A stretch of 64,000 bases of DNA from Patescibacteria group bacterium (GCA_004297215.1 SCUM01000001.1:742716-806715); one strand, 5' to 3'. Positions 2,627 through 42,300 are shown, numbered from the stretch's first letter. Translations and numbers: made by a program. Notes: generated from the letters alone by a model not told the origin.

Positions 2627-3582
2627 TGCTCATCATCGTCTACGGCGACGACTCGTTCCGGGTGCAGGAGAAGGTGCGCCAGCTCACGGACGCCTTCAAG
2701 AAGAAATTCGACCCGACCGGGATGAATCTGGCTTCCTTCGGCGAGAAGGCCGACGTGGGCGAAGTGATGCAGGCCGTCCGTTCCATGCCGTTCATGGGGG
2801 AAAAGCGGATGGTGGTGATCCGCGATCTCGTGTCGAAGTCGAAAAAGGGAGACGAGGACGCATGGGTTGGGCTCAAGGCGACGCCGGACTCCACGATCGT
2901 CGTCCTATGGGAGAGCGATGACGCGAAGGCGCTTGAGAAGAAGGCGCTGTTCAAGTCATTGAAGGATGCGGCGGAGCTGCACCTCTATCCATTCCCCGTC
3001 CTTGAAGGTCCGGCTCTCACGAAGTGGATCACGGAACGCATCACGTCGCAGGGCGGGAAGATCGCCCCTGCCGCGGCAACGGAAATCGCTTCGCGCGTGT
3101 CCGGCGACTTGTGGCAGGCGGACGGCGAGATTCGGAAACTGACCGCGTTTGCCTCTGGTCGCGAAATCACGGCGGACGACGTGCGAGAGCTCGTCCGCCC
3201 GTCGTTCGAGGGGGAAATCTTCGCGTTCATCGACGCGGTGAGCCAGCGCAACGGGAAGGAAGCGTTCCGGCTCCTCGCGCAGGAACGGTCAGCTGGCAGC
3301 GAAGACCATTACCTGCTCGCCATGCTCGCACGCCAGGTAAGGATTTTGCTCGGCGTGCGCGCGATGATGGATGAGGACGTGCGCGTCGCCAAAGACGCGA
3401 TTGCGACGGAACTCGCGCTGCACCCGTTCGTGGCGCAAAAGGCCATGGCGGCCGCGCGCCGCTTCACGCTGTCCGAGCTCATGGCCGCGCACGACGCTTT
3501 GTTCGAACGCGAAGTCGGGGTGAAGTCCGGGATGGATCCCGAGACAGCGGTGGACCTGATGACTGTTCAGATGACGGGATAA
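2627..3582 (+). CDS. holA: DNA polymerase III delta subunit
   Basis: ATG at 2627, 3 nt after the polA stop. Begins MLIIVYGDDSFRVQEK.., typical HolA N-terminus, followed by a helical C-terminal domain. The annotated ORF start at 2497 (GTG) overlaps polA and is unlikely. Confidence 0.8.
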
Positions 3583-6984: not shown

Positions 6985-7863
6985 ATGAAGCGTCTCGCCT
7001 CCGTCATCGCCATGCTCACGATGCTCACGCCGGTTGCCGCACGCGCTTTTTCCGTTTCTCCGGCGATCATCGACCTCTCCGCCACGCGCGGGACGGTCGC
7101 GTCGACGTCGATCACCATCACCAATGCCGACGCACGGGAGAAGACGTATTACCTGCAGGCGATCGCCTTCGAGCCGCGCGAGGACGCGGACGCGCCGCGT
7201 TTCCTCCCGCGCGAAGAGGGGACGGCGGGATTGTCGGAGTGGATTTCGATCGAGGACCGCGTGCGCGTGCCGGCGGGCGGGAAGCTCACGGTACCGGTAA
7301 AGGCGGCGGTGCCCATGGATGCGCTTCCCGGGACGCACTATGCCGCGATCACCGTGTCGGACGCGCCGTATGACGTGGTGGCTTCCCAAGGCGCCCCGAT
7401 CCAGGCGCGGGTGGCGGTCTTGCTGTTCCTGACGGTAGAAGGAGGGACGGCGAAGGCCGCGCTCCTGGATTTCCTGCCGGATCCCGCCGGAGCCATCCGG
7501 GAGAACACCTCGCACAGGTACGCCCTTCGCATCCAAAATCAGGGAGACGTGGTCGTGATCCCCGTCGGTACGGTAGAGACGAGGGACCTGTTCGGGCGAG
7601 TCGTCGCGTCGGCGCAGGTGAACGGGGAAGGGAAGCGCGTGGTCCCCGGATCGACGCGGACGTTCGAGGTGATCGTGCCGGAGAAGGGACTCGCCCTCGG
7701 CCCGGTGACGGCCACGCTCAAGCTGACCTACGCATCGGACCAGCCCGCCCTGTCTTCGTCCGACTCCTTCTGGGTATTCCCATGGCCGGTCGTCATCCTG
7801 TCGGCCTTCGTCGGCCTGATGGGTCTCATGATCCTGGTCGGCATCGTCCGACGACGCGCCTGA
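6985..7863 (+). CDS. Membrane-anchored PapD-like/DUF916-like beta-sandwich protein (candidate assembly chaperone)
   Basis: 292 aa. Signal peptide. N-terminus FSVSPAIIDLSATRGTVASTSITITNADAREKTYYLQAIAFEP resembles the pilus-chaperone N-domain motif. C-terminal FWVFPW followed by TM helix and RRRA tail. Paralog at 35280..36236. Confidence 0.75.
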   Translation: MKRLASVIAMLTMLTPVAARAFSVSPAIIDLSATRGTVASTSITITNADAREKTYYLQAIAFEPREDADAPRFLPREEGTAGLSEWISIEDRVRVPAGGKLTVPVKAAVPMDALPGTHYAAITVSDAPYDVVASQGAPIQARVAVLLFLTVEGGTAKAALLDFLPDPAGAIRENTSHRYALRIQNQGDVVVIPVGTVETRDLFGRVVASAQVNGEGKRVVPGSTRTFEVIVPEKGLALGPVTATLKLTYASDQPALSSSDSFWVFPWPVVILSAFVGLMGLMILVGIVRRRA

Positions 7864-7864
7864 T

Positions 7865-10800
7865 ATGCCCCATATAAGGAGGAACGTCCATCGTCTCATC
7901 GCCGCCGCGACCATCCTCGCGAGCGTCTTGCCGTTCCTCCCCGCGCGCGCGGCCACGGTCACCTCCGCGAGCGACGTCATGACCACCCTGGAGACGTCGG
8001 CCGCCGCGAACCACGTCATCGCCTTCGTCACCCCATCGGGCGTTTCGGAAGGGGACACGGTCACCATCGAGTTCGACGCGGATTTCGACACGTCGGGCCT
8101 TACCGAAGATGACGTGGACGTGGAGGACGACGGCGTCGACCTTACGACCGCCGCGGATTGCAGCGGCGCGGAACAGGCGTCGGTCATCCTTGCTGCCGAC
8201 ACGTTCACCATCACCATCTGTGCCGGAGACGGGGGCGCGATCGCCGCCACGAGCGAGGTGACGGTGGAAATCGGCACCAATGCCACCGCTTCGGGCACGG
8301 GCACCTCCCAAATCGACAACCCGTCCGCGGCGGGCACCTATTACGTGTCCGTGTCCGGCACGTTCGGCGACGCCGGCTCCATCGCCCTTCCCATCGGAGG
8401 GGATGACACGATCGGCGTGACGGCGACGGTCACCACCGGCGGCGCTGGAGGAGGTGGGCCGCCGGCCCCGCCCGCGGGCGACACCACGCCGCCCGTCATC
8501 AGCAACATCACCGTGAGTTCGATCACGGCCACCTCGGCAATCGTCACCTGGGACACGGATGAGGCCGCGGACAGTCGCGTGGATTTCGGGCCCACCGTCG
8601 CCTACGAGAACGGGAGCGTCACGAGCGGGACCCTCGTCACCAGCCACGCGCTTACCCTCACCGGGCTCACGGGAAGCACCGAATACCACTTCCGCGTGCG
8701 CTCGAAGGACGCGGCGCTGAACGAGCGGATCAGTTCCGACAACACCTTCATGACCACGGACGGCGTCGCGCCGCTCATCTCGGCGATCGTCGTGACGGAC
8801 ATCACGACGACCAGCGCGCGCGTGACCTGGACGACGGATGAGGCCGCCGACAGCGCGGTCGATTTCGGACCCACCGTCGCCTATGGGACGATCGTCACGG
8901 ACGGGAGCCTGGTCGTGAGCCATTCCGTGGTGCTGACCGGACTCACGGAGAACGCCCTCCATCACTTCCGCGTGCGCTCGAAGGACGCGGCGCTGAACGA
9001 AGCCGTGAGCGGCGACGGGACGTTTACGACGCTCGACGATCCCAACCCGGGCAACGTCACCGGACTGTCGGTGACGGCGGGGGACGCGCAAAACCAGCTT
9101 TCATGGACGAATCCCCCGGACGGCGACCTTTCGTCGATCCGCGTCATCGCGTGCACGAACGAAGCGCCGAGCAGCCCGACCGATCCGGATTGCACGGTCG
9201 TGTCCAGTTCGCTCGCTTCCTCTTTCACCCACACCGGCCTTTCCAACGGCACCACCTACTTCTACGGCGTCTTCGCCGTGGACGCCGTTGGGCAGTTCAG
9301 TTCTGGTACGCTCGGGCAGGGTACCCCGAGCGTGCCAGAAGAAGAGCTGCCGCCGGAGGAGCCTCCCCCGGAGCCTCCCCCGGAAGCGCCGCCGGAACCG
9401 CCCCCAGAGGCGGTTCCACCCCCAGCCCTCCCGTCCGGCCAGGCGGGAGGAGCGTGCGGGGACGGCATCTGTTCGGACCTGGAGTCCGGCGCATCTTGCG
9501 CCGTCGACTGCGGTCCGCTCCCGCCCGCGGCCGCGTGCGGGAACGCCGTGTGCGAAGCCGGCGAGGACAGCGCCTCGTGCGCACAGGACTGTCCTCCCGG
9601 CCTCGTGCCGGCCGATGTCCTGCGGCAAGACCTCACGTTCCTTGCGGGAGCCGCCGGGCTCGCGCTCCCCGTGTCCGACCGGGGATCGGTCGCGGTGCTT
9701 TCGCGCCGTGCGCTCGTCGCGCGGCTTTCCGCCATCCACCTTGATCGACCGGTGGATCGCGTCGAACTTGCCCTTGAGGGCGAGACCTACCTCATGGCCC
9801 CAACCTTCTCGGAAGAGGAGGGACAGGGGTTGCGCGCCGCCGCCGTGGGCGACGACGCGTACGAGACCACGATCACGACGCCGGAGACGTCGGGATCCCA
9901 TCCGTTAGCGGTGACCGTCCACTACGGGGACGGCACCGTGCAGGCCGTCGCCTTGCTCCTCGACGTAAAGGGCGACGGATATGCCTATGCGTCCGTCGAC
10001 GATGCCGAACAGCGCGTTTCAGGCGCCACCGCCACGCTTCACGAGGTCAACGGGGGAACGGCCGTATGGGACGGGTCACCCTACGGGCAATCCAATCCGT
10101 TGACGACGGGCGGCAACGGCGCGTTCGCCTGGTACGCGCCGAACGGGACGTACGCCGTGTCCGTTTCGGCCGCCGGGTATGCGCCCGCGCGGACCGCGAC
10201 GTTCTCGGTCACGGACCACATCATCAATCCTCGCGTGCGGCTCGCCCTCGAGGAGGAGCCGCCGCTGATCCCGCCCCCTTCGGCCCCCGTCGCGGCGATC
10301 CTGGACGCGGCCGCCGCCGTCAACGAGACGCTCGAGGCGGTACGCGACCTTCCCGCCGTGCAGACGGCCGCGGACATCTCGGTTCCCGCGCTTGCCGTGA
10401 CCGCCTCCCTCACGGGCGTCACGCTCGCGATCGGGTTCAATTTCGTTCCTTTGCTCCAATATCTCTTCACCGCGCCCGTCCTGCTCGTGGGACGGCGCAA
10501 GCGTCGCGCTTTCGGGATCGTCTACAATTCGATCTCGAAGCTGCCCGTGGACCTTGCCACCGTGCGATTGTTCCGCCTGCCGGATGAGCTTCCCGCCGAG
10601 GGGGTTCCGGAGACCGGGAGGCTGGTGCAATCCCGCGTGACGGACCGCGGCGGACGCTATTTCTTCCTTGCCAATCCCGGCCGCTACCGCCTGGCGGTGA
10701 CGAAGCAGGGATTCGATTTCCCGACGGGCTACCTCTCATCCTCGCGGGAAGACCATGACTTCCTCGACCTCTATCACGGCGAGCCCATCGTCGTCTCCGA

Positions 10801-11329
10801 GGCCGGGGCCGTCATCGCGGCCAACGTCCCGCTCGACCCGTCGCAGGCCGCCGCGTTCCACGCTCCGGCCGCCATCGTCCTCAAGGCGCGCCTGCGGACG
10901 ATCCAACACGTCGTTTCCATCTCCGGCATCATCGCCTCGGTCGCGTTCGCGGTGATCAGGCCGGGCGCCCTGACGGTCGGGATGGTGCTCGTGCAGGCGC
11001 TCGTCTACCTTGCCGTGCGCCGCCTCGCGCGCGCGGCCAAGCCCAAGAGCTGGGGGATCGTGTACGACCAGGGGACGGACAAGCCGCTTGGCCGCGTCAT
11101 CGCGCGCGTGTTCGAGCCGCGGTACAATAAGCTCCTTGAGACGGCCGTCACCGACGGCAACGGCCGCTACAACTTCGTGCTCGGGCCCAACGAGTATTAC
11201 GTGGTGTTCGAGCATGAAGGCTACGACAACGTCGAGATACGCCCGGTGGATTTCACCGGACGCAAAGAGGCATCGGACTGGGGCGTCCAGGTCCGCCTGC
11301 CGCCAAAGCTCCTTCCCGCATCCGCGTGA
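7865..11329 (+). CDS. Large multidomain surface protein (subunit-like N-domain, 3x FN3, Cys-rich modules, TM helices alternating with carboxypeptidase-regulatory-like domains)
   Basis: 1154 aa. N-terminal 190 aa homologous to the 34101 protein (ATxTSAxDxM, NHxIxFxTPxGV, ADCS, IGTNAT, SGTFGDxGxIAL). FN3-like repeats with TEYHFRVRSKDAALNE. Pro/Glu-rich linker. Two CG(D/N)GxC...C..DC modules. TM + GRRKRR + CarbopepD_reg-like (TDRGGRYFF..PGRYRL) + TM + second CarbopepD_reg-like (TDGNGRYNF). Confidence 0.8.
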   Translation: MPHIRRNVHRLIAAATILASVLPFLPARAATVTSASDVMTTLETSAAANHVIAFVTPSGVSEGDTVTIEFDADFDTSGLTEDDVDVEDDGVDLTTAADCSGAEQASVILAADTFTITICAGDGGAIAATSEVTVEIGTNATASGTGTSQIDNPSAAGTYYVSVSGTFGDAGSIALPIGGDDTIGVTATVTTGGAGGGGPPAPPAGDTTPPVISNITVSSITATSAIVTWDTDEAADSRVDFGPTVAYENGSVTSGTLVTSHALTLTGLTGSTEYHFRVRSKDAALNERISSDNTFMTTDGVAPLISAIVVTDITTTSARVTWTTDEAADSAVDFGPTVAYGTIVTDGSLVVSHSVVLTGLTENALHHFRVRSKDAALNEAVSGDGTFTTLDDPNPGNVTGLSVTAGDAQNQLSWTNPPDGDLSSIRVIACTNEAPSSPTDPDCTVVSSSLASSFTHTGLSNGTTYFYGVFAVDAVGQFSSGTLGQGTPSVPEEELPPEEPPPEPPPEAPPEPPPEAVPPPALPSGQAGGACGDGICSDLESGASCAVDCGPLPPAAACGNAVCEAGEDSASCAQDCPPGLVPADVLRQDLTFLAGAAGLALPVSDRGSVAVLSRRALVARLSAIHLDRPVDRVELALEGETYLMAPTFSEEEGQGLRAAAVGDDAYETTITTPETSGSHPLAVTVHYGDGTVQAVALLLDVKGDGYAYASVDDAEQRVSGATATLHEVNGGTAVWDGSPYGQSNPLTTGGNGAFAWYAPNGTYAVSVSAAGYAPARTATFSVTDHIINPRVRLALEEEPPLIPPPSAPVAAILDAAAAVNETLEAVRDLPAVQTAADISVPALAVTASLTGVTLAIGFNFVPLLQYLFTAPVLLVGRRKRRAFGIVYNSISKLPVDLATVRLFRLPDELPAEGVPETGRLVQSRVTDRGGRYFFLANPGRYRLAVTKQGFDFPTGYLSSSREDHDFLDLYHGEPIVVSEAGAVIAANVPLDPSQAAAFHAPAAIVLKARLRTIQHVVSISGIIASVAFAVIRPGALTVGMVLVQALVYLAVRRLARAAKPKSWGIVYDQGTDKPLGRVIARVFEPRYNKLLETAVTDGNGRYNFVLGPNEYYVVFEHEGYDNVEIRPVDFTGRKEASDWGVQVRLPPKLLPASA

Positions 11330-11488: not shown

Positions 11489-14400
11489 ATGCTCAAGCGG
11501 TTCAAGGACAACCCGGATCACTTTTTCAGGAGGCTGTTCGCCTTCACGGCCTTGGGTCTGGTGATGGCCGGAGCGGTGTCGTACATGCTTACGGACAGTT
11601 ACCTGTCCGTCTTCGCCGTCTCTCCTCCCAACATCATCCCGTACCAAGGCCGCCTGCTCAACGCCAACGGAGTGCCCGACGCTTCCGCTTCCCGCGACTT
11701 CCAGTTCCGTTTGTACGACTCCCTAGCCGCCGGCACGTGCCTGTGGAGCAACGACGACAGCTCCTGCGCCTCCGACGCCGATTTGGCCGTGACCCTCACC
11801 GACGGGTTGTTCTCCGAGAACCTCGGCGACACCGGGGCCGGATACGCCGCCATTCCGGATTCCGTGTTCGCGGATGATGCCTCCGTGTTCCTCGAGGTGG
11901 AGGTGGAAGGGGAGGTGCTTTCCCCGAGGAAGCAGATCGGAGCCGCGGCGTATGCGTTCAATGCCGACACGCTCGACGGGATGGATTCGGCGAGTTTCGC
12001 CCTCGTGGACGACGCGTTCGTGCAGGACGGCAACAGCTTCGGGGCAACGGCCGTCATCGGCACCAACGACACCGAGGATTTCGCGATCGAGACGGACGGG
12101 ACCACGCGCATGACGGTCCTTTCAAGCGGTGAGGTCGGAATCGGCACGGCCACCCCGCTCGACACCGTCAGCATCCTCGGGACGTCGGGTTCGACCGGCA
12201 TCGGCATCGATGACAGCACCGCGGGAGGGAACACCTATCTCATCCTCAACCACATCAGCGCGTCGGATTCGAGCGAGGAGATCCTCATGAACGGCGACGG
12301 AACGATCGGACTCAACATCACCAACCAGAACTCCGGCACGCTGGGCACCGACCTCACCGACATCCCTTCGAGCGCCAACTTCTACACCAACTCCGGGAAT
12401 GCCGGCGGGCTCATCCTCGCTTCCCAGCACGCCACGGCCCCGATGATCTTCGCCACCGGCGGCATCGCCACGGGCGACGAGCGCATGCGCATCGACTCCG
12501 CCGGAAACGTCGGGATCGGCACGACGACCCCCGGCGAGACGCTGGAAGTATCCGGCACCTCGTACGTCTCCGGCCACGCCGCGATCGGCGCGGACGCGGC
12601 CGTGGACGACGGGAGCCTCCTCTATCCCGGCTCGATCTTCTCCAACACGCTCAACGTGTCCGAGCGGAGCACGGACGCGAGCGTGGACTACGTCGAGGGC
12701 ACCACCAACTACCTCCTGTACGACCCGTCGGCGGACGCCTCGGGCATCTGGGCGATCGCCCTTGATTCCGAGGCGGCCACCGAGGCGACGAACGCCGAGG
12801 ATGTCGGCACCCTGTCCGCCGGGTATTTCAACGCGACCCACAACGGGACCGGCGACATCACGAGCTGGATGTCCGGCATCGAGGCGTACGCCTTCACCAC
12901 CGCGACCGGCGGAAGCTCGGTCGAGAGCATTGCCGGATACTTCTCGCTTAGCCTGTCGGATCCCCGTTCCTCAGGCACCGAGAACAACTACGGCGTGTGG
13001 TCGGCCGTGAGCCGCACCGGCGCCACCGGCGGCACCATCAACACCTACGGCGTGTACGTGGATGACACGGGCGTGGGCAACGCGGGAGCGGGCACTTCCA
13101 CCGCCTACGGCCTGTACCTCGAGGATTTTCCGACCGCCGACGCCCAATATTCCATCTACTCCGAGGGCGGCCAAAGCTACCACGCTGGCAACTTCGGGAT
13201 CGGGGCGACCACGCCCGACGCCGACCTCGACATCGAGGCCGCCGAGGACACGGAGCGCGTGAGGCTCACGGACACGAGCAACGCGGACTCGGTCGGTCTC
13301 TATGTCGGCGACGGCACGGCAGGGCTCGACGGGACCCTCTCGGCCCAGGCGGGGAGCCTGTTCCTCGACGAGGACGGGAAGCTGTGGGTGAACATGGACG
13401 GGGCGACCAACTGGGACCAGGTGGCGACCACGGCCGGAGGCGCCCTGGACCTCGACGGGGCGTACGACAACGATTCAGACAAGAAGATGGCCGTGGACAA
13501 CGCCTCGGGCCTCGAGTTCGAGAGCTCCACGGCCGGCAACGTGTTCGTGGACCTGCAAAGCACCGGCGACTTCGTGATCCAGTCGGTTGGCACCGCCTTC
13601 GCCACCTTCAACGACTCGGGGAACGTCCTTTTCGAGAACTCGCTCACGGTCGGTTCCAGCTCCGCCGACGTCGTCCTGTTCAACGCCGACGTGGACAGCC
13701 ACTTCATCCCCGACGACGACGACACCTACGACCTGGGCGCCGACGCCCAGCGCTGGAGGGACCTCTACCTTGGGGCCGCGACCCTCCACGTCGGTTCCCT
13801 TATCGGGGACGAGGGAACCATCTCCTATGACACCGGGGCGAACGCGCTCGTCGTGAACGAGGGTGGGGCCGACACCGACTTCCGCATCGAAGGCGACACG
13901 GAGGCGAACCTCCTCTTCCTCGACGCCGGCAACGGCCGCGTGGGGATTGGTACGGCTAGCCCGACCGCGCGCGTACACGCGACCCAATCGACGGACGGCG
14001 GCGGAGGATACGTCTTCGAGAATTCGAACGCGGGAGCGTCCGCCTTTTCCGAGGTTTCCGTCGTGTCCGATGGCGCGACGGGTTCGTGGAGGTCGTTCGG
14101 CACAGGAAATACGAACCTCGGCTTTGATTCCATTTCATTAGCCGATTCCGTGGCCATCGGCGCGAATACGGATGCGACCCGCATGTTCGTGGCCACCTTC
14201 GGCACCGCACCGCTCCTCATCGGCACCAATCTCAACACGAGCGGGACGCCACCGGGGATATTCATCGACACGTCCAACAACGTTGGGATCTTCGACGAGA
14301 CCCCGTCCGCCAAACTCGACGTAGGAGGGACCTTTGCCGTGCAAGGGAATTCGACCCTCGGCAACGCCTCGGGCGACACAGTCACCTCAAACGCCGCCGC

Positions 14401-20106: not shown

Positions 20107-23100
20107 ATGGATCTCCTCGAACGCAAGGACCACCCGCTTTGCCGCCTGATGCAGGGGGTGGTTGCGGTCGCGTTGGTGATCACCGGAGGGATCGCCTCGA
20201 CCTGGGTGATGTTCGAGGCTCTCTCCGTCTTTGCCGTCTCTCCCCCGAATATCATCTCGTACCAGGGGAGGCTCCTCAACGCCAACGGCGTGCCGGACGC
20301 TTCCGCTTCCCGCGACTTCCAGTTCCGCTTGTACGACTCGCTGGCCGCCGGCACCTGCCTGTGGAGCAATGACGACAGCTCCTGCGCCTCCGACGCCGAT
20401 TTGGCCGTGACGCTCACCGACGGATTATTCTCCGAGAACCTGGGCGACACCGGGGCCGGGTACGCCGCCATCCCGGATTCCGTGTTCGCCGATGACGCGA
20501 GCGTGTTCCTCGAGGTGGAGGTGGAAGGGGAGGTGCTTTCGCCGCGCAAGCAGATTGGCGCCGCGGCGTACGCCATGAACGCGGATACGCTGGATGGGAT
20601 CAATTCCACGAGTTTCTTCGTCCAAAATGGCAACTCCCTCGGCGCCGCGGCCGTGCTCGGGACCAATGACGGCTTCGGACTTGAGCTGGAGACGGGCGGG
20701 ACGACGCGACTGACGTTAGGGACAAGCGGCGCGATTACCGTTCCCCTTGCCGGCTCTTTCGTATTCGATGACGATGCGACCGACGGGTTGGATGACGACA
20801 TGACCCTCGAAGTCGCCGCGTCGCTGGCGTACCCCGGATTCGACGTCACCGTCATGCATCCGTCCTTCGGATTGCTTGAACTCGTGGATCCCGTGAATAG
20901 CGCCCCGGGAATCGCGTTGCACGGCGACCTCCCAGCATACGCCATCAACGTGGATAACCCTGGAGGGGCGGGGACGGCCTTCTTTCCCATGTCGTTCTTT
21001 CGCGAGGGCGCTTCAAGTTCTCCCTTCTTCTCGATGCAGACCTATCCGGATGACGACGGTTGGGCCATCTACGGACCGAGCGTCGCTGATCCCGGGGTCA
21101 TTCAGATCCTCGAAGCCGGCACGGTGAACGCCGGTGCCTATGCCGCTCGTAGCGACGCTTCGGCGATTCCGATCCTGTGCGCGTCCACGCGGGTCGAGGA
21201 GACCGCCGCGAACCTGGTCCAGGAATCATGCTTCATGGCCGACGGTTCTCTCGACCTCGGGCTCGCGCTCGCGGGCACGGACACGACCGTGGCCCAAGGC
21301 GGCATCGAGCGGTCCAGCGGATCGGACGAGACCTTCGCCTTCGCGAACCAGGGCGCGGGAGTCCTTTCTCTGACCGCGGATGGCACGGTGGACGTCTCCG
21401 GCCACGCCGCCATCGGCGCGGACGCGCTGATTGATGACGGAGGCCTCCTCTATCCCGGCTCCACCTTCTCCAACACGCTCAACGTGTCCGAGCGGAGCAC
21501 GGACGCGAGCGTGGACTACGTCGAGGGCACCACCAACTACCTCCTGTACGACCCGTCGGCGGACGCCTCAGGCATCTGGGCGATCGCCCTCGATTCCGAG
21601 GCGGCCACCGAGGCGACGAACGCCGAGGACGTCGGCACCCTGTCGGCCGGGTATTTCAACGCGACCCACAACGGGACAGGCGACATCACGAGCTGGATGT
21701 CCGGCATCGAGGCGTACGTCTACACCACTGCGACCGGCGGGAGTTCGATCTCGAACATCGGCGGGTATTTCTCGGTCACCGCCCAGGACCCGCGCGCCAC
21801 AGGCACCGAAGACAACTACGGCGTGTGGTCGGCCGTGCACCGCACCGGCGCCACGGGCGGCACCATCAACACGTATGGCATGTACGTGGACAACGACGGC
21901 GTGGACGCGGCCGGGGCCGGTACCTCCACCCTCTACGGACTGTTCCTCGAGAGCATGACCGGCGCGGACACCAACTATTCCATCTACTCCGCGGGCGGCC
22001 AGAGCTACCATGCCGGCAACTTCGGGATCGGGGCGACCACTCCGGACGCCGACCTCGACATCGAGGCCGCGGAGGACACGGAGCGCGTGAGGCTCACCGA
22101 CTCGAGCAACGCCGACTCCGTGGGATTGTACGTGGGCGACGGCACCGCCGGGCTCGACGGCACCCTTTCGGCCCAGGCCGGCTCCCTCTTCCTCGACGAG
22201 GACGGGAAGCTGTGGGTGAACATGGACGGGGCGACCAACTGGGACCAGGTGGCCACCACGGCCGGCGGGGGGACGGACCTCGACGGGGTGTACGACAACG
22301 ATTCGGACAAGAAGATGGCCGTGGACAACGCCTCGGGCCTCGAGTTCGAGAGCACCACCGCGGGCAACGTGTTCGTGGACCTGCAAAGCTCGGGCGACTT
22401 CGTGATCCAGTCGGTTGGCACCGCCTTCGCCACCTTCAACGACTCCGGCAACGTCAGTTTCGAGAACTCGCTCACGGTCGGTTCGAGCTCCGCCGACGTG
22501 GTGCTGTTCAACGCCGACGTGGACAGCCATTTTCTCCCCGACGACGACGACACCTACGACCTGGGCGCCGACGCCCAGCGCTGGAGGGACCTCTACCTCG
22601 GGGCCGCGACCTTGCACGTCGGTTCTCTTATCGGCGACGAAGGGACGCTCTCGTATGACAGCACGCCAAACGACTTCAATTTCGCAAATGGCGGCGCCAC
22701 GCGGATGACCATCCAAAGCGACGGCGACGTGGGAATCGGGGATTCGATGACCTCGCCCACCGCCCAGCTGCACATCAAGCAGACCGCCGCCGAGGACGCC
22801 CTGCGCGTGGACGACGAGGCGGCCGGCACCACCTATTTCGTGGTGGACGACGGCGGCAACGTGGGCATCGGGGTCACCTCCGGCCCGTCCTCCACGCTGC
22901 ACGTGGTGGGCGATACGCGCATCGGCGCCACGGATTACGTCACCATGGCGCAGGACGGCGGCGGGTTCTACGTGGAGCAGATCGGGAGTTCCGACGCGCT
23001 GCGCCCGATTCGCCTGCAGTCGCGCAACGCGGCGACCCAGTACAGCCAGTTCTTCGTGGACCCGGTGAACGGGTTCCAGTTCCTCATCAACGCCACCGGC

Positions 23101-34100: not shown

Positions 34101-35258
34101 ATGAACAAATTCCATTCATTCATCGCGAAAGTGACCATGCTCTCGCTGGTGGTCGCGCTGGTGGCGATCGTCTCCCCGGCGCAGGCGGCCACGATCACCT
34201 CCGCCAAGGACACGATGTCGCGCGTGCAGATCTCGACCCTCTCCAACCACGAGATCCTGTTCACGACCCCGACCGGCGTCGCGAGCGGCGCCACGATCAT
34301 CGTCACGTTCAACACCGACTTCTCGGTCGCGGCCGCGCTCGACTTCACGGATCTCGACCTCTCATCGGACTCGACACCGGATGCCGACTGTAGCGCGGAC
34401 GAAACGGAGGCGACCCTCGCGGCCGCCCCGTCGGGCGCCACGGTGGGCGCCGTGCGCACGTCCGGCACCGTCATCACCTTCACCAACGGCACGACCGTGA
34501 TCGCGGCCGGGTCGGAAGTGTGCATCCAGATCGGCACGAACGCCACGAACCAGACGACCGGCGTCCGACAGGTCACCAACGCCACGACGGACAGCTCGGC
34601 GAGCGCCAAGACCGTCGCTTTGAGCGGCACCTTCGGCGACTCCGGCACCATCGCGTTGGGCATCGTGGACGACGACACGGTAGCCATCTCGGCCACGGTC
34701 ACGTCCGCGCTCACCTTCGACCTCGATACGGTCACCACGGACACATGCAGCACCACCGAGACTGCGGCCGCCTACGCGGTCGCGCTCGGCACTATCACCA
34801 CCACCGACACCCGCGTGTCCGGCGGGACCGACTCGGTGGAATCCATCTGCGTAGACCTCAACACCAACGCCTCCGGGGGCGCCGTGATCACGGTCGTCTC
34901 GGCCAACGGGTCGAGCGGGCTCGTGAGCACCTCGGTGCCGGGCGACACCATCCCGAGCGCCGGAGCCACCATGGCCGACGGCACGGCCAACTACGGCATC
35001 TGCGTGGTGTCGGAAACGTCTTCCGCCGGCACGTTCGACGACGTGGCGCCGTTTGACAACGCCTCGTGCGCGGCCAACACCGAGACCAACGTGGTCGGCG
35101 GCCTCACCACCTCGGCGCAGACCATCCTCGACACCAACACCGACCCGATCGCCACCGGCCGCGCGCAGATCGCCGTGAACGCCGCCATCAGCGGAATCAC
35201 CCCGGCGCACAGCGACTACGCGGACACCCTCACGTTCATCGCGACGGGGACGTTCTAA
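34101..35258 (+). CDS. Secreted subunit-like protein 2 (homologous to the N-domain of the 7865 protein), C-terminal ...LTFIATGTF
   Basis: 385 aa. Signal peptide. ATITSAKDTM..NHEILFTTPTGV..ADCSADE..IGTNATNQ..SGTFGDSGTIALGI. Thr/Ser-rich. The terminal strand resembles those of 6078 and 32767. Confidence 0.75.
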   Translation: MNKFHSFIAKVTMLSLVVALVAIVSPAQAATITSAKDTMSRVQISTLSNHEILFTTPTGVASGATIIVTFNTDFSVAAALDFTDLDLSSDSTPDADCSADETEATLAAAPSGATVGAVRTSGTVITFTNGTTVIAAGSEVCIQIGTNATNQTTGVRQVTNATTDSSASAKTVALSGTFGDSGTIALGIVDDDTVAISATVTSALTFDLDTVTTDTCSTTETAAAYAVALGTITTTDTRVSGGTDSVESICVDLNTNASGGAVITVVSANGSSGLVSTSVPGDTIPSAGATMADGTANYGICVVSETSSAGTFDDVAPFDNASCAANTETNVVGGLTTSAQTILDTNTDPIATGRAQIAVNAAISGITPAHSDYADTLTFIATGTF

Positions 35259-35279
35259 CTCATCCGCAACGACATACAT

Positions 35280-36236
35280 ATGTGGAGGAAACTGTCATTT
35301 GCGGCCATGGTGGCGACCCTGCTCGCCCCGATCATGAACGTGCTTCCGGCCGCGGCGCTCACCGTGAGCCCGGTGGTGATCGAGCATGAGGCCGACCCCG
35401 GCGACGAGATCGTGGGGACCATCAAGCTGCACAACGAAGGGGCCCAGACGGAGACGTATTACCCGACCGTCCAGGACTTCGTGGGTTCCGACGAGTCCGG
35501 TACGCCCCAGTTCATCGGAACGAGCCCCGACCGCTCGCTCGTGGAGTGGGTGTCGTTCGGCCGCAGCTCCATCACCATCGATCCGGGCGACGGGGAGCTC
35601 GTGGTGTACACGCTCAAGGTGCCGAAGGATGCCGCCCCGGGCGGGTACTTCGGCGGCCTGCTGTTCTCGACCTCGCCGGCCAACGCCGCGTTCGGCGTGG
35701 GCACCGTGGGCGTCACGGGCCCGCTCCTGCTTGTGCGCGTGTCCGGCAACGTGGTCGAACGGGCGAGCGTCGCCTCGTTCGCGTCGAGCCAGGACTCGGG
35801 CACCTCGCTCCCGGTGGACTTCAAGCTGCGCGTGCAAAACGAAGGCACGGTGCACGTGAAGCCCACGGGCGTGATCCGCATCACCAACCTGTTCGGCGGC
35901 GTATCCGCCGTCATTCCGGTGAACGCGGGCGGCGGCAACGTGCTGCCTGGCGGTGCGCGCGTCTACTCCGAGAGCTGGGTCAAGTCCGAGCTTCCGGACA
36001 ACGCGAGCGAGCTCATGAAGGAATGGAAGAACTTCGGGTTCGGCCCGTACACCGCCACCCTTATCCTGAACTACGGGGAAGGGAAGCAGGTGATGAGCGC
36101 CTCCGACTCCTTCTGGGTGATGCCGTGGATGCTCATGGTGCTGTTCGTGATCCTCATCGCGGTCGCATTGCTCCTGCTCGCCCAGTACAACAAGTGGGTG
36201 ATCGCAAGGGCGATGATGAGCCAGAAGAAACGGTAG
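35280..36236 (+). CDS. Membrane-anchored PapD-like/DUF916-like beta-sandwich protein (paralog of 6985)
   Basis: 318 aa. Signal peptide, LTVSPVVIEHEADPGDEIVGTIKLHNEGAQTETYYPTVQDF, C-terminal SDSFWVMPW + TM helix + basic tail (QKKR). Confidence 0.75.
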   Translation: MWRKLSFAAMVATLLAPIMNVLPAAALTVSPVVIEHEADPGDEIVGTIKLHNEGAQTETYYPTVQDFVGSDESGTPQFIGTSPDRSLVEWVSFGRSSITIDPGDGELVVYTLKVPKDAAPGGYFGGLLFSTSPANAAFGVGTVGVTGPLLLVRVSGNVVERASVASFASSQDSGTSLPVDFKLRVQNEGTVHVKPTGVIRITNLFGGVSAVIPVNAGGGNVLPGGARVYSESWVKSELPDNASELMKEWKNFGFGPYTATLILNYGEGKQVMSASDSFWVMPWMLMVLFVILIAVALLLLAQYNKWVIARAMMSQKKR

Positions 36237-36257
36237 CTCCTCAGACCCCACCATGCC

Positions 36258-36334
36258 TCCCCTTTCCAAGGGGAGGGTAGCGGAAGCGAGCTATCTCCCC
36301 CTTGGAAAGGGGGAGCATGAGGGGGTCTGCGGCG
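36258..36334. repeat. Cluster of palindromic repeats upstream of giant gene 3
   Basis: CCTCCCCTTTCCAAGGGGAGGG, then CTCCCCCTTGGAAAGGGGGAG + CATGAGGGGGTCTGCGG (parts 1 and 3 of the composite element). Confidence 0.8.
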
Positions 36335-36341
36335 TGGGAGC

Positions 36342-39300
36342 GTGAGTTCCCACGTCCGCCCCGTGTCACGAGCGTCTCGTGGCATGAGGCGGGTGGATTC
36401 CACCCGAACTTTGCACGCCCCCATGCTTGTCGTGCAGCCAGACAAATCCCTCATCCGAAGAGTAAGCGCGAGCGAGCCGTTCGCGCTCGTTGTGGTTTTC
36501 CTCATGATGATTTCCGGGTTCAGCGTGTGGATGCTGCTGTCGCGCGCGCCCGGGGCGGTCGCGACGCTCGACACGCCGATGCTCATCACCTATCAGGGGA
36601 AGCTCACCAACGCGAGCCGCATCACGGTGCCGGACTCGGCGCTCAACATGAAGTTCGCGATCTACACCTCGAGCTCCGGCGCCTCCGGCTGCGTGTGGAG
36701 CGCGGGCGACGACCCGGGCGACGGCGCGGACACTACCTTCTCGCAATCAAGCGACTGTCCGAGCCATGTCCCGTCGACCGCGATTTCCGTGACGCCCAGC
36801 GAAGGGGTGGTCACGGTGATCCTCGGCGCCTCCCCGCAAAACGCCATCCCCGATGCGCTGTTCGACGACAACTCCGCCCTGTACCTCGGCGTCACCGTGG
36901 GGGCTGACAGCGAAATGACTCCGAGGATCCGCCTCACCGCCACGCCCTACGCCTTCCAGGCCGGCGACGCGGACCTGCTCGACGGCCTCGATTCCACGGC
37001 GTTCGCCACCACGAGCACCGCGTTCGTGAACAACGGCAATTCCTTCGCCGCCGCCGGGGTGATCGGCACCAACGACGCGAACTCGCTCTCGTTTGAGACG
37101 AACAACGTTACCTATCTCACCATCGCCTCCGGCGGCGGCTTCACGCTTCCCGTGGACACCGACTGGACGCTCACGGGCGGCACGAACGGGTTGAGCCTCG
37201 ACGGCACCACCTTCTCCGTGGACGCCGCCAACAACCGCATCGGCATCGGCACCGCGGCCCCGAGCCAGACCCTCACGGTGGTCGGCACCGGCGACGTGTC
37301 CGGCCACGTGGCCATCGGCGACGACGCCGCGATCAACGACGCGTCGCTCCTCTATGGCGCATCGACCATCACGAACGTCCTTACCGTCTCCGAGGAGATG
37401 ACGGACGGCGCCTCGGACTACGTGGACGGCATCACCAACCACATCCTGTACAACCCGTCCACCGACGCCTCAACCACGTGGGTCGACGGCATGGACACGG
37501 TCGTGGAGACGGCCGCGGCAAACGCGCAGGACATCGACGTGATCGATGCCGGATATTTCGGGACCACCCATAACGGCACGGGCGACATCGTGGGCTGGCT
37601 CAACGGCGTCTCGGGGGTCGTCAGCACGACGGCGACGAGCGGGAGTTCTATTTCGAACAACGCCGGGTATTTCGCGGTCACCGCGATCGACCCCCGCGCC
37701 ACCGGTACCGAGGACAACTACGGCTTGTGGTCGGCCGTGAGCCGCACCGGCGCCACGGGCGGCACCATCAACACCTACGGCGTGTACGTGCAAAGCAACG
37801 GCATGGACGCTGCCGGCGCCGGTACCTCCACCCTCTACGGCCTCTATATAGAGAGCATGACAGGGGCCGACACCAACTACGCCATCTACTCCGCCGGCGG
37901 CCAGAGCTACCACGCGGGGAACTTCGGGATCGGCGACGCCTCTCCCGCCTCCCTCCTCACCGTGGGCTCGGGCGACCTGTTCCAGGTGACCTCCGCGGGG
38001 AGGATCATCACGACCGTGACCCCCACGGCCGACTCGGGGACCACCAACAACGCGGCGTTCGTGATGCTCACCACCCCGGCGGACACCACCGGCACGAACG
38101 TGCACAACGCCCTGCGCGTGGACGGGAACGTGGGCAACGCCACCGGAGGCACCAACACCGTCAATCTCCTCGAGTTCGACGCTCTGACCGGCGACGCCCA
38201 AGTGACCCTGCGCGGCATCGACATCGGCGCGCTCACCGGCACCGCCGCCACGGAGGACGCCATCCTGGTCGGAAGCGGTTGGGACTGCACGTTCAAGGTG
38301 GGCTCCACCTGCGTGATCGATGGCTCCGGCACGCTCGGTTCCAGCGGCAACGCCTTCGTGAACGGGGGCAACTCCTTCGGCGCCAGCGCCATCCTCGGGA
38401 CGAACGACGCCAACTCCCTTTCGTTTGAGACCAACAACACCACCTACCTCACCATCGCCTCCGGCGGAGGATTCACCCTCCCCGTGGACACCGACTGGAC
38501 GCTCACGGGCGGGGAGAACGGGTTCTCCATCGACGGCACCACCTTCTCGGTGGATGGCTCGGCCAACCGCGTGGGCATCGGCGACGCCACCCCCGACGCG
38601 CTGCTCGACGTGGGCGGGGACGCGTTCATCGACAACGACCTCGTGGTGGGTGCCGCGACCTCGACCACCGAGACGCTCGCGAACGCCGGGTTCAGCTTGA
38701 GCAACGACGACCTATTCGTCTCTGACTCCATCGGCGCCGAGGGCAACGTCTACACCGACGGCTCCTTCATCGCGGGTGCCACCCTCACGCTCGCCGACTC
38801 CGGCATCACCGAGTCGGGTGCCTTCACCTTCACCTCGCAGCTCGCCGCGGGCGGCACTACTTCTTCCGCCTTCAACCTTGTCTCGAGCAACGACCTGGGC
38901 GCATCCGACGAGGTGCTCCAGATCGGCGACTCGGCCGCCACCTTCATGACCGTGCTCGGGAACGGCAGCGTGGGGATCGGGACGGTGAGTCCGTCAGTGA
39001 TTTTAGATATCGCGAAAGTGGGTTCGGGAAGTACCGCGGCCCAAGTGACCATTTCCGGGTATGCGAATGACGCTTCCAGCGGGGCATACATGAACTGGCA
39101 AAAATCACGCGGAACGTCCGTCGGTTCTTTGGTCACGACCGATAGCGGAGATTATCTCGGGGTGATGGGATGGGCGGGCGTTACTTCTTCCAACACGAGC
39201 AGTTATGGCGCGAGGATCCTCGTGCAGCAAGATGCCGCGGCATCAGCGACGCAAGTACCCGGCGCCTTCATCATCAGGACGAGCGATGCCAGCGCCGAGT

Positions 39301-42300
39301 CTGAAAGATTGCGCATCACGAGTTCCGGCAACGTCGGCATCGGCGATACCACCCCCGCCTCGCTGTTCACCGTGGGCGACGGAGATGATTTCCAGGTATC
39401 CTCGACCGGTAACCTCACCTCTCCGGCCGACACCACATGGACGATTGGTGGCGGCGTGAACGGCCTCAACTTCGATTCGGACACCCTTTCGATCGACGCT
39501 ACGAACAATTTCGTGGGAATCGGCACGAGCACCCCGGACTATCTCCTCCAGGCCGAGGCCAGCTCCGCGTCCGTTCAAGCCGCCGTGGTCACGAACACGA
39601 ACACGGCCGGCGCAGGGGTGGTCATGGCGCAGGCGGGAAACGTGACGGCGCGCTATGCGGCGTACGGGACGACGGCGGCGATTAACAACTTCGCGTCCGG
39701 CACGGCGGCCTTCTTCGGAAGCGGCGCCGTCACCTCCGTCCAGATGGTCACGCCGGACGTGGCCGCCCCGTTGGCGTTCGGATACAACGATTTCGTCTCC
39801 ACGAGCCGCGAATTCCTCCGCCTGACGGACGGGACGGCCGGCGCCGTGTTCAACGAGGACAGCCTCGACCGGGATTTCCGCGCCGAGACCGACGGGAACG
39901 TCAACGGCATCTTCCTCGACGCTTCCGCCGAGACCATCGACCTGGTGGGCGGCTCGGGCTCCACGGGCTGCTCCATCAGCTCGGCGGGCGCCCTGGTGTG
40001 CACCGCAGGGGTAGGAGGATGGACCGACGGGGGGACCGACGTCACCCTCACCACCTCCACCGACAACGTGGGCATCGGCGGTGCGTCGCTCGGCAAGCTC
40101 TCCGTGGACGGGGATACCGACGAGATCCAGCTCCTGGTGCAGGGAAACTCCAGCCAGACGGCCAACTACATGACGGTGGAGACGAGCGCCGGCACCGACC
40201 TGTTCCAGATTGACACTTCCGGGAACGTCATCCTCACCAACGACCTTGGCGTGGGCGCCGCCGCCTCCTCCGAGACGCTCGCGAACACGGGTTTCTCGCC
40301 GAATGGCGACGACCTGTTCGTGGCGGACTCGATCGGCGCGGAAGGCAACGTCTACACCGACGGCTCCTTCATCGCCGGCGCCACCCTCACGCTCGCGGAC
40401 TCCGGCATCACCGAATCCGGCGCCTTCATTTTCACCTCCCAGCTCGCTTCCGGCGGCACCACCTCCTCCGCCTTCAACCTCGTCTCGAGCAATGACCTGG
40501 GTGCCGCCGACGAGCTCCTGCAGATCGGGGACTCGGCCGGGACGTTCATGACGTTCCTTGGGAACGGCAACGTCGGGATCGGGACCGTAAACCCCTCGGC
40601 CCCGCTCACGGTGGTCGGGGGAGCGGACGTCAATCTCGCCGCGGACGACAACTTCGTCATCGACGGGAGCACCAACCAGCGCACCATCACGCTCGGAGCC
40701 ATGCGCTTCTTGCACACGCCGGCCATCCAGGGGACGCGCGCCATCAACCTGGTGGTGGACGCCAACAACCAGTCCGACACCTCCGGCATCGTGGTGGATT
40801 ACGCCGCCACCAACTTCGACAGCGACCAGAACGGCACGGCGCTCAAGCTCTCGGTGGATTCCACGAGCGCGACCGGCGGGGAAGTGCGGGCGATCGACGT
40901 CACGAAGACGGCCGGCGGCACCCTCGACGTGTACGCGGTGCAAGCCGGGGTGGGCGTGACCCCCCTGCGCCAGGTCTCGGGCACGTTCGGGAACGTGGAC
41001 ACGGCGCTCATCGAGGCCGGCGGATTCACGGCCGTCACGTCGAGCTTCAACTCCACCGGCACCGACGTGCAGATGTTCGTGGCCAACGGCGACCGCGTGT
41101 ACGTGGGCGCGGACACCACCTTCGGCGCCGTCTCCTTCGTGCTCGCCACCGTCGCCTCCGGCGCCGGAGTGAAGCCAACCTTCGAGTTTTCCACGGGCGC
41201 CGGATGGACGAGCTTCGGTCCCAACGACGGGACCAACGGGATGCGCACCAACGGGAGCATCAGTTGGGACGCCGCCGACCTCGCGACCTGGGCCACCCAG
41301 TCCGTGAACGCCACCACCAAGTACTGGATCCGCATCACGCGCACGCAGGCCGCGCTTACCACGCCGCCCACCGAGGACATCGTGCAATACGCGGCCGCGA
41401 CCAATTACACCTGGGACGTGAACGGCGACCTCGCGATCCGCGACCTCGCGGTCAACGGCGGCGACCTCACCACGAGCACTTCCACCTTCAACCTGGCCGC
41501 GTCGGTCACGACGCTCGCGATGGCCGGCGGCTCCGGCTCCACGGGCTGCACGATTGACTCCTCGGGGAACCTGGCGTGTTCCGGCACGGTGTCAGGGAGC
41601 GGAGCCGTCGGGTTCGTGAACGGGGGCAACTCCTTCGGCGCCAGCGCCATCCTCGGGACGAACGACGCGAACTCGCTCTCGTTTGAGACCAATAACACCA
41701 CCTACCTCACCATCGCCTCCGGCGGCGGGTTCACGCTTCCCGTGGACACCGACTGGACCCTCACGGGCGGCACGAACGGGTTGAGCTTCGACGGCACCAC
41801 CTTCTCCGTGGACGCCACCAACAACCGCATCGGCATCGGCACGGCGGCGCCGACGACGGAGCTTGATATTGTCGGTTCGGGGACCGGCTACAACTTCAAC
41901 GCGATCCGCAGCACGAACGGCAACATCGGCTATTTCTCCCAGAACGACACGGCCGGCACCGCCGCGACATCGCGCATGTGGTTGATTGCTGACGGGGTTT
42001 CGGGCAACAGCGTGCAAGGGAATCTCTGGGCGCTCTCCTCCTCCTATACGGATGCCTTCTGGGGAAGCTACGCGGCGGGCAAGGTCTTGCTTGCGGCTGC
42101 TGGTGAGGCGAGTCGGAAGGACCTGTTGATCGCGGCGGTCGGTTCCGGGACTGGCGGCAAGATCGCATTCCATGTCGGTGGATTGAACGAGGCGCCGTTA
42201 GCCGCCAACGAACGGGCGCAAATCGGCGCGACTGAGTTCGTCGTCAACGACAGCTCCAATAATTACGACTTCCGCGTGGAGGGCGACACCAACGCCAACC

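Follow-up and report, generated by a model that had tools for sequence, protein, structure and literature searches.

Introduction

A large part of bacterial diversity belongs to the candidate phyla radiation (CPR), or Patescibacteria, whose members live attached to other cells. To our knowledge, very little is known about how their surface fibres are held in the single membrane. The sole published model is that of the Pam pili of Saccharimonadia and Microgenomatia, which has a one-helix anchor (bioRxiv 10.64898/2026.03.03.709456). The model comprises donor-strand-exchange pilins, membrane-anchored PapD-like chaperones and PamR, a FnIII protein with a single C-terminal helix that is proposed to end the filament and anchor it. 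A tail-fibre-like protein is co-located at the Pam loci, and the model needs no dedicated trans-envelope machine (bioRxiv 10.64898/2026.03.03.709456). Here we analysed a stretch of 64,000 nucleotides (called the window here) from the genome of a Patescibacteria group bacterium (GCA_004297215.1 SCUM01000001.1:742716-806715). It encodes a 1154-residue surface protein at positions 7865–11329 (the 7865 protein), whose C-terminus carries an elaborate membrane module.

The 7865 protein resembles PamR in being a CPR-specific secreted FnIII protein with a C-terminal membrane anchor, and in being encoded beside putative donor-strand pilin-like genes and genes for putative membrane-anchored immunoglobulin (Ig) ‘chaperones’. 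The two differ in size and build. PamR has two FnIII domains and one transmembrane (TM) helix, whereas the 7865 protein has three FN3 domains and an anchor of four helical segments with two interleaved transthyretin-like domains that are predicted to be cytoplasmic.

Three other groups of proteins share parts of this architecture. The WxLIP proteins (DUF916/DUF3324 plus a TM helix) have two Ig-like domains and a TM helix, and are predicted to insert a β-hairpin strand into a partner (Hassan et al. 2023, PMC10599100). The CarboxypepD_reg families (PF13620, PF13715) describe the fold of the three β-sandwiches at the C-terminus of the 7865 protein and are the sole annotation on its homologues in public databases, but they are silent on the membrane stretches, the basic clusters and the fixed order of the parts. 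The sorting signals of the LPXTG, PEP-CTERM and PGF-CTERM types likewise place a hydrophobic helix and a basic cluster close to the C-terminal end of a surface protein.

Architecture of the C-terminal module

One unit, duplicated in tandem, makes up the module. It consists of a two-helix membrane stretch of approximately 37 residues, an Arg/Lys cluster and a transthyretin-like (CarboxypepD_reg) β-sandwich. Unit 1 (residues 838–1001) and unit 2 (residues 1002–1150) align with an hhalign probability of 99.3% (E = 3.8e-20; profiles from approximately 70 homologues), and the alignment is gapless and collinear across the hydrophobic stretch, the basic cluster and the domain. The sandwiches of the two units, D2 and D3, are homologous to each other (hhalign probability 99.1%). 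When the hydrophobic parts were taken alone, the profile–profile comparison gave no significant similarity. A further sandwich, D1, adjoins the membrane on the N-terminal side of unit 1. A first-pass annotation of the window had described this C-terminus as a TM segment, a basic cluster and a CarboxypepD_reg-like domain, followed by the same three parts again. That order holds, with two refinements: there are three sandwiches and not two, and each ‘TM’ of approximately 37 residues is made of two helices of approximately 17 residues. The coordinates are collected in Table 1.

The assignment of CarboxypepD_reg-like domains was borne out by a profile comparison with PF13620. The whole 7865 protein scored 55.1 bits over three stretches, above the gathering cut-off of 32.3 bits. 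Each domain scanned alone stayed below it (D1, E = 1.2e-5, 26.0 bits; D2, E = 4e-5, 24.3 bits; D3, E = 6.2e-7, 30.1 bits). An AlphaFold2 (AF2) model covering residues 700–1154 was built from 26 sequences, with a mean predicted local distance difference test (pLDDT) score of 79. It contains the three sandwiches, a helix at residues 810–827 and low-confidence helices at residues 830–857 and 860–875 (pLDDT 45–49). All three sandwiches have the seven-stranded transthyretin-like fold (pLDDT 80–96; approximately 90 for the strands of D1, 80–94 for D2 and 83–96 for D3). They superpose on the transthyretin-like domain of carboxypeptidase D (Foldseek: 5aq0_B, TM-score 0.83, root-mean-square deviation 2.1 Å).

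Conservation in the membrane part was taken from alignments of 77 and 225 homologues. Residues 841–858 contain no charged residue in the 225 homologues, and position 859, where the first stretch breaks, is Asp (28% of the 225 sequences) or Asn. The most conserved element is helix 1b (residues 860–876), which bears the motif LLPFLQYLFTAPILFF; P871 is conserved at 100%, L873 at 97% and F868 at 93%. The second stretch is a helical hairpin (hairpin 2) with AF2 helices at residues 1002–1031 and 1035–1054 (pLDDT 73–87). Its turn reads R/Q-P-S/T across the family, with P1033 conserved at 95% and a mean of 0.4 Lys/Arg. Upstream of the first stretch, the flank at residues 823–837 is acidic, with a mean of 2.9 Asp/Glu against 1.2 Lys/Arg across the family. 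The Kyte–Doolittle means are 1.80 and 1.76 for the halves of stretch 1 and range from 1.76 to 2.51 over all four half-stretches. These are of TM length, free of charge and bounded by positive-inside flanks. By these measures the hydrophobic stretches are predicted to be integral membrane segments, so the finding that would have refuted the first-pass annotation, stretches that do not span the membrane, was not obtained. Polar residues are conserved inside the membrane helices (Q865, Y866, T869, Q1014, Q1044 and Y1048), and the conservation of D2 and D3 equals or exceeds that of the membrane part.

With RRKRR after it, a hydrophobic stretch looks like the end of a sorting signal that is cleaved at the C-terminus, of the kind known for sortases, exosortases or rhombosortases. 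This reading was rejected, as too much folded and conserved sequence lies past the basic cluster (approximately 270 residues). There is no signature motif such as LPXTG or PEP ahead of the helix, and no NCBIfam sorting-signal model matches. We therefore regard a sorting signal, which these data already contradict, as extremely improbable.

Distribution of the module

The module recurs far beyond chance. A word-indexed search returned 26 close homologues with 32–62% identity, and a genome scan returned 234 related genome stretches, labelled nearly all as Uhrbacteria, Patescibacteria or Parcubacteria. An exhaustive profile search gave 4893 cluster representatives at E ≤ 1e-3, 3415 at E ≤ 1e-10 and 1364 at E ≤ 1e-30. 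The whole module is present in all 150 best matches, in proteins of 255–4040 residues, and in most of these the match ends within approximately 15 residues of the C-terminus. The comparison across homologues that the first-pass annotation had proposed thus shows that the module is conserved.

Where the homologues have public names, these are ‘hypothetical’ or ‘carboxypeptidase regulatory-like domain-containing’. No NCBIfam model matches the module, and neither a Pfam nor an NCBIfam family covers the membrane part. Literature searches on the surface proteins of Uhrbacteria and on the occurrence of this domain among CPR bacteria gave nothing relevant. As an element of the CPR, the module is very widespread and undescribed.

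The 7865 protein itself ends without a tail, and 31 homologues have tails of 31–182 residues beyond D3 that are rich in Lys (10.9%), Glu (11.5%) and Pro (16.3%). These tails contain no further TM segment. They are coiled-coil-like; some carry repeated PWE[LVM]xxLxK motifs, and seven end in (K/S)IFG or IFS. Tailed homologues include P0020, P0110, P0111, P0112, P0130, P0136, P0152 and P0162. A cytoplasmic partner may recognize these tail sequences as short linear motifs.

Packing of the membrane helices

Co-evolution within the module was analysed by mean-field direct-coupling analysis of 204 non-redundant sequences (effective number 117). Three of the top couplings fall in the membrane part: 1029–1038 (rank 3), 859–1032 (rank 4) and 1021–1044 (rank 6). 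The first and last of these confirm that hairpin 2 is antiparallel. The coupling 859–1032 indicates that the mid-point of stretch 1 touches the tip of the hairpin, and with this D/N859–R/Q1032 contact the four helices form one packed membrane unit.

Position 1032 is Arg, His or Lys in 59 of the 62 sequences that have Asp859; where Asp is absent, position 1032 is basic in 26 of 163, and Asn–Gln is the commonest pair. The association has a Fisher p-value of 1e-29, uncorrected for phylogeny. By parsimony on a neighbour-joining tree, the two sites have changed at least 10 and at least 12 times, with five changes on the same branch, and the basic residue at 1032 was never lost while Asp859 was retained.

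Weaker antiparallel couplings were seen between helices 1a and 2b (852–1044 and 849–1048). A permutation test gave no significance for their register (p = 0.18) or for that of other helix pairs. A signal between helices 1b and 2b lies at the repeat offset (p = 0.006) and may be an artefact of the repeat.

Predicted topology of the module

The N-terminal residues of the 7865 protein, approximately 800 in all, are probably outside the cell, since they comprise a signal peptide and a Cys-rich ectodomain with FN3 and Ig domains. The side of D2 and D3 was judged from charge. The positive-inside rule is established, and a RRKRK-like run right after a hydrophobic helix is a classic stop-transfer signal. 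Hairpin 2 is basic at both ends, and on this basis we infer with good confidence that D2 and D3 are cytoplasmic. The composition of the domains was compared by paired family-wide counts of Lys and Arg, which supersede a within-window composition classifier. In 203 proteins, the median Lys+Arg content rises from 5.6% in the 90-residue region next to the membrane on the outside to 11.7% in D2 and 14.5% in D3, and D3 lies above the outside region in 99.5% of them. The same counts also give 11.6% for D2 and 14.4% for D3, against 5.9% just outside the membrane. D1, with 4% Lys+Arg, is as low as the ectodomain, and whole ectodomains have 1.6% Lys across the family. D2 and D3 are also depleted in Cys, which is weak evidence since the extracellular D1 lacks Cys too.

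In this arrangement, stretch 1 would be the sole net crossing, from outside to inside. Hairpin 2 would enter the membrane from the cytoplasm and return to it, so that D2, D3 and, in many homologues, the Lys/Glu/Pro-rich tail would be cytoplasmic. The first-pass annotation had suggested that Ig/FN3 regions, membrane passes and prealbumin-like domains alternate, with the latter on the opposite side. For the 7865 protein the opposite side is probably correct as far as D2 and D3 are concerned, but the sides do not alternate: both of these C-terminal sandwiches are predicted on the cytoplasmic side, and the third sandwich, D1, outside.

Several observations weigh against a cytoplasmic D2 and D3. 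Stretch 1 would have to cross the membrane an odd number of times, which sits badly with its collinear alignment to a hairpin and with the contact between its mid-point and the tip of hairpin 2. Helix 1b is poor as an independent TM helix (+4.5 kcal mol−1 by a rough sum of apparent free energies), and the confidence of the AF2 model is low over residues 800–879. CarboxypepD_reg domains are usually extracytoplasmic, and a site in the cytoplasm directly under the membrane would be unusual for the family. The superseded within-window test gave intermediate values for D2 (+0.10 bits per residue) and D3 (+0.16) against a cytoplasmic mean of +0.25, and two regions presumed to be outside scored +0.06 and +0.07.

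The contact between residues 859 and 1032 would be most natural if stretch 1 were also a hairpin and everything lay outside. Both stretches would then be hairpins, four membrane helices in all, with their tips (859 and 1032) facing the cytoplasm. D1, D2 and D3 would be on the surface, with the Arg/Lys collars bound to wall polymers or to the head groups of anionic lipids. Such a double-hairpin anchor would fit the equal length of the two duplicated units and the weak antiparallel 1a–2b couplings. The transthyretin-like domains of surface proteins are normally extracellular (Foldseek matches: SdrD, pilins). The double-hairpin anchor would, however, place approximately 14 Lys/Arg flanking the helices outside against 0.4 inside, and a stop-transfer run of the RRKRK type after a hydrophobic helix. 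D2 and D3 have two to three times the Lys+Arg content of the outside region in 93–99% of the 203 proteins, the Lys/Glu-rich tails after D3 contain no TM segment, and the 1a–2b register is the one that failed the permutation test. On balance we consider an all-outside anchor unlikely. The conflict over stretch 1 has three ways out. Helix 1a may lie in the outer leaflet with only 1b crossing, the 859–1032 pair may be buried in the membrane, or the positive-inside rule may fail, with all parts lying outside. Of all features of the module, the transthyretin-like domains and their probable place in the cytoplasm are the most surprising and also the most open to testing.

The operon and the proposed anchoring role

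The module protein is encoded by the third gene of a conserved operon in approximately 70 genomes, and most of the 80 loci that we fetched have the same five genes in the same order. These encode a secreted protein of approximately 300 residues; a protein of approximately 310 residues with a signal peptide, Ig-like domains and a C-terminal TM helix; the module protein (approximately 650–1420 residues where complete); one or two giants (1000–3300 residues); and a polytopic TPR protein of approximately 780–800 residues.

Gene 1 matches two NCBIfam models below membership: PamT (NF058579; E = 3.2e-15, 56.2 bits against a cut-off of 240) and Pam_pilin_C (NF058581; E = 2.7e-4, 21 against 55 bits). 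PamT is also matched by 32 of 32 homologues of gene 1 (E down to 3e-16) and Pam pilin C by 22 of 32, all below the cut-offs. Judged by these profiles, gene 1 is a relative of the Pam pilins and not a member by NCBI criteria. Gene 1 and its homologues point to a divergent Pam-like system in Uhrbacteria.

With its signal peptide, Ig-like domains and C-terminal TM helix, gene 2 resembles PamC and PamD in architecture, and no Pam chaperone model matches it. Its family profile matches WxLIP1 of Enterococcus faecium (PDB 9i25, 9i1y; E = 2.8e-8), and the two families are homologous. Both have two Ig-like domains and a C-terminal helix, and proteins of both kinds are proposed to hold a partner by means of an inserted β-hairpin strand. 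The locus differs from the WxL loci in that no WxL-domain partner was found; neither gene 1 nor the small secreted pilin-like protein at 34101 has a Pfam match. No counterpart of the 7865 module is described in the account of the WxL loci by Hassan et al. (PMC10599100). The WxLIP-like Ig proteins of this locus and of a second locus in the window (6985–7863 and 35280–36236) link the CPR fibre operons, and probably the PamC/D ‘chaperones’ too, to the WxL loci of Firmicutes.

The giants are fibre-like and match no Pfam family, and a giant gene holds its position after the module gene in nearly all related loci. The two giants of this operon (compared at 11489–11900 and 20107–20500) differ by one residue over at least 92 residues past the N-terminal membrane segment, LSVFAVSPPNII[P/S]YQGRLLNANG..., and a third giant in the window (36342) has a related motif. 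Such near-identity suggests a recent duplication or gene conversion. Gene 5 encodes approximately 10 membrane segments without a Pfam family, and TPR families are found in 16 of 16 homologues. The giant fibre genes and the polytopic TPR protein set this operon apart from the Pam system.

Because the operon partners are Pam-pilin-like, WxLIP-like, giant fibre and polytopic TPR proteins, anchoring is the best reading of the module. The C-terminus of the 7865 protein is probably a membrane ‘foot’ that bolts a pilus-like fibre to the cell. The 7865 protein would be embedded in the membrane as the base of the pilus- or fibre-like structure that the operon encodes for the cell surface. This structure would be a distant relative of the Pam pili of CPR bacteria, which assemble by donor-strand exchange, with the 7865 protein in the anchoring role proposed for PamR. 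A multi-helix ‘toggle-bolt’ would take the place of one helix, and the folded cytoplasmic domains would block pull-through. D2 and D3 may also dock cytoplasmic partners. Taken as a whole, a conserved membrane foot with D2 and D3 in the cytoplasm at the base of a Pam-like surface fibre has, in our estimate, slightly better than an even chance of being the right explanation.

If it is right, the module is a second, more elaborate and very widespread solution to anchoring, found in more than 1000 protein clusters that are now hypothetical or generically named. Pam-like operons would be extended to Uhrbacteria, which are not among the lineages highlighted for Pam pili, and tied to the WxL loci of Firmicutes. 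A cytoplasmic location of the sandwiches would offer a handle on whether host contact is passed into the cell.

Some results tell against this explanation. The link to Pam pili rests on scores (56 bits against 240) that fall far short of the NCBIfam cut-offs. At this locus every Pam model stays under its cut-off, and none in NCBIfam matches gene 2 or the 7865 protein. The giants carry their own N-terminal membrane segments and may not need the 7865 anchor.

The first-pass annotation had offered an anchoring or export device. Anchoring fits, with the module at the conserved C-terminus of secreted FN3/Ig proteins in a fibre operon. For export there is neither an ATPase nor evidence of a channel. 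The corresponding proposal is a channel or an assembly platform for the giants or the pilins, built from oligomers of the four short helices. The prolines and polar residues conserved in the helices and the position of the gene immediately upstream of the giant genes would suit such a conduit. Against it, oligomers are unsupported, the operon encodes no ATPase or other energy source, all partners bear their own Sec-type N-terminal hydrophobic segments, and the published Pam model works without a dedicated trans-envelope machine. We regard a conduit as very unlikely.

The conserved polar residues, together with D2 and D3 being conserved at least as well as the membrane part, have also to be weighed under another reading with the same topology. 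Here the module would be a transmembrane coupling or signalling device, in which D2, D3 and the tail motifs mainly bind a cytoplasmic partner and report on or control the fibre. The PWE[LVM]xxLxK and terminal IFG motifs in the tails of homologues would fit this role, and 220 conserved cytoplasmic residues are superfluous for a simple anchor. However, the operon has no gene for a cytoplasmic partner, the 7865 protein has no tail, and no enzymatic or known signalling domain was found with Pfam or NCBIfam. A device used mainly for signalling is, in our judgement, quite improbable.

A broader proposal combines the two roles. A CPR-wide ‘foot’ family would couple highly variable host-contact fibres to cytoplasmic transthyretin-like domains and tails through a four-helix unit with a buried D859–R1032 (or N–Q) pair, and so provide ultrasmall episymbionts with a direct mechanical or signalling line to the cytoplasm. 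The same genome would use an unrelated anchoring by a split Ig domain in the 49910/52487 pair described below. We put this forward tentatively, as a possibility with well under an even chance.

The 7865 protein and its genomic setting

The annotated region at 10300–11329 is the C-terminus of the 7865 protein; 10300 is one base off the frame, and codon 813 begins at 10301. Upstream of the module, the protein matches Pfam fn3 (72.7 bits, three stretches) and Pur_ac_phosph_N (60.8 bits). Its N-terminal domain matches no Pfam family and is 39% identical to the N-terminal half of 34101 (BLASTP, E = 2e-33). By analogy with PamR-like anchors, which are expected to insert an N-terminal donor strand into a pilin, this domain is a putative site of donor-strand exchange.

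The window has a G+C content of 64.7% and is part of a bacterial chromosome. It also encodes PolA, HolA, RmuC, YchF, S6, SSB, an Asn/Asp-tRNA-synthetase-like protein and FtsK. The genome belongs to Candidatus Uhrbacteria, and the closest species genome is that of Candidatus Uhrbacteria RIFCSPHIGHO2_01_FULL_63_20, which is syntenic with the window from PolA onwards.

Table 1. Features of the 7865 protein, its operon and the 49910/52487 pair, with positions in the window (aa, amino acid residues; ORF, open reading frame).
Feature	Residues or length	Position	Strand	Evidence and remarks
Whole gene, surface protein	1154 aa	7865..11329	+	ORF, translation; GenBank TAK04250.1, ‘hypothetical protein EPO34_03855’
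Signal peptide	aa 1–29	7865..7951	+	Basic n-region, hydrophobic core, ARA/AT cleavage motif by eye; Kyte–Doolittle flags aa 11–30
N-terminal domain	aa 30–191	7952..8437	+	Common to small secreted pilin-like protein 34101
Three FN3/purple-acid-phosphatase-N-like domains	aa ~205–490	8477..9334	+	Pfam
D1, transthyretin-like (CarboxypepD_reg) β-sandwich, membrane-adjoining, extracellular	aa 706–795	9980..10249	+	Pfam, AF2
Acidic amphipathic helix ahead of membrane	aa 810–837	10292..10375	+	AF2 helix 810–827
Membrane stretch 1	aa 838–876	10376..10492	+	Helix 1a 842–858, D/N859 break, helix 1b 860–876 bearing LLPFLQYLFTAPILFF
Basic cluster 1, RRKRR	aa 877–881	10493..10507	+	Mean 4.8 Lys/Arg at aa 877–882, 225 homologues
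D2, transthyretin-like β-sandwich with insertion, predicted cytoplasmic	aa 883–995	10511..10849	+	Pfam, AF2
Basic flank ahead of hairpin 2	aa 1002–1012	10868..10900	+	Mean 4.35 Lys/Arg over aa 1000–1012, 225 homologues
Membrane stretch 2, helical hairpin	aa 1013–1051	10901..11017	+	Helix 2a, R1032-P1033-G turn, helix 2b
Basic cluster 2, RRLARAAKPK	aa 1052–1061	11018..11047	+	Mean 4.56 Lys/Arg over aa 1052–1062, 225 homologues
D3, transthyretin-like β-sandwich, predicted cytoplasmic	aa 1063–1145	11051..11299	+	Pfam, AF2
Operon gene 1, secreted protein, Pam-pilin-related	301 aa	6078..6983	+	NCBIfam
Operon gene 2, signal peptide, Ig-like domains, C-terminal TM, WxLIP-like		6985..7863	+	TM aa 261–290; PamC/PamD architecture
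Two giant fibre-like proteins	2814 and 2482 aa	11489..27555	+	ORFs; N-terminal membrane segment each
Operon gene 5, polytopic membrane protein, C-terminal TPR domain	797 aa	27576..29969	+	Position conserved
49910 protein, secreted, upstream partner of 52487	857 aa	49910..52483	+	Ends ...GTARPGSVVTIIIR (stop) in first strands of Ig-like domain
52487 protein	316 aa	52487..53437	+	Acidic N-tail with part of Ig-like domain, TM1 77–97, basic loop 98–121, TM2 122–141, β domain 160–241, α/β domain 245–315

The 52487 protein and its partner

The first-pass annotation had seen the same module in a second protein of the window, encoded at 52487 (identical to GenBank hypothetical protein EPO34_03925). 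Its reading of that protein as TM, loop, TM and CarboxypepD_reg-like domain holds for the two TM helices and the basic loop of 24 residues between them. The domain is only partly matched (25.6 bits against the cut-off of 32.3, profile positions 1–48 of 82) and does not reach membership. In a Foldseek search with the AF2 model (pLDDT 65), the best transthyretin-like match had E = 0.06 and a TM-score of 0.54, and none was found at E ≤ 0.001.

The recurrence of one module in the two proteins could not be upheld. BLASTP finds no similarity between the 52487 protein and the 7865 module (best E = 1.3). The elements also come in another order: in 52487 the basic residues lie between the helices, and in the 7865 protein they flank them. 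Because its basic residues lie between the helices, the 52487 protein is predicted to have the reverse topology, with the loop inside and both ends outside. Its β domain would then be on the same outer side as the Ig part, and not on the opposite side as first suggested. From their sequences, the likeness of the two proteins is one of analogy, not homology. Three homologues of the 52487 protein have 311–323 residues. The protein has no signal peptide and begins with an acidic tail of 75 residues.

The 52487 gene follows closely on that of a secreted protein at 49910. The 49910 protein ends ...GTARPGSVVTIIIR at a TAG codon; one codon on, in the same frame, the 52487 protein starts MPEQEWVTQVTADESGEW.... 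The fused junction matches Big_13 with 24.9 bits (profile positions 33–85), against 18.9 bits for the downstream half, both below the cut-off of 27. An Ig-like (Big_13-like) domain is thus split across 52367–52640 at ...VTIIIR(stop)/M(P/A)(D/E).... The split is kept at the same residue in three relatives (L081–L083) with 50–72% identity, with TGA, TAG or TAA as the stop. We had considered a single gene broken by an in-frame TAG (a pseudogene, a sequencing error or read-through), and rejected it because the three relatives keep the split. In one relative the two ORFs are in different frames. It is plausible that the 49910 and 52487 proteins rebuild one Ig domain, which would tie a secreted to a membrane protein in a manner like donor-strand complementation.

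The annotated start of 49910 gives a basic leader of 52 residues before a signal-like segment, and close homologues have 807–814 residues against 857; the true start is probably further downstream. The pair belongs to a second, rearranged paralogous locus (34101–53437) with the pilin-like 34101, the WxLIP-like 35280, a giant of 4299 residues (36342–49241), a secreted protein of 221 residues and 49910/52487, and with no TPR membrane protein. The 221-residue protein (49243–49908) matches no Pfam family, nor does 34101; by eye, its C-terminus has dockerin-like Ca-binding repeats (GDVNGAG...DDVVNAVD...NQDVVVNSVD). One relative of the 49910/52487 pair (L081, positions 3139–3440) has an insertion of approximately 300 bp exactly at the ORF junction. 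It encodes a 96-residue GIY-YIG protein (Pfam, 48.9 bits), is flanked by the inverted repeat CAGCACTACAACAACGAC / GTCGTTGTTGTAGTGCTG and looks like a small mobile element.

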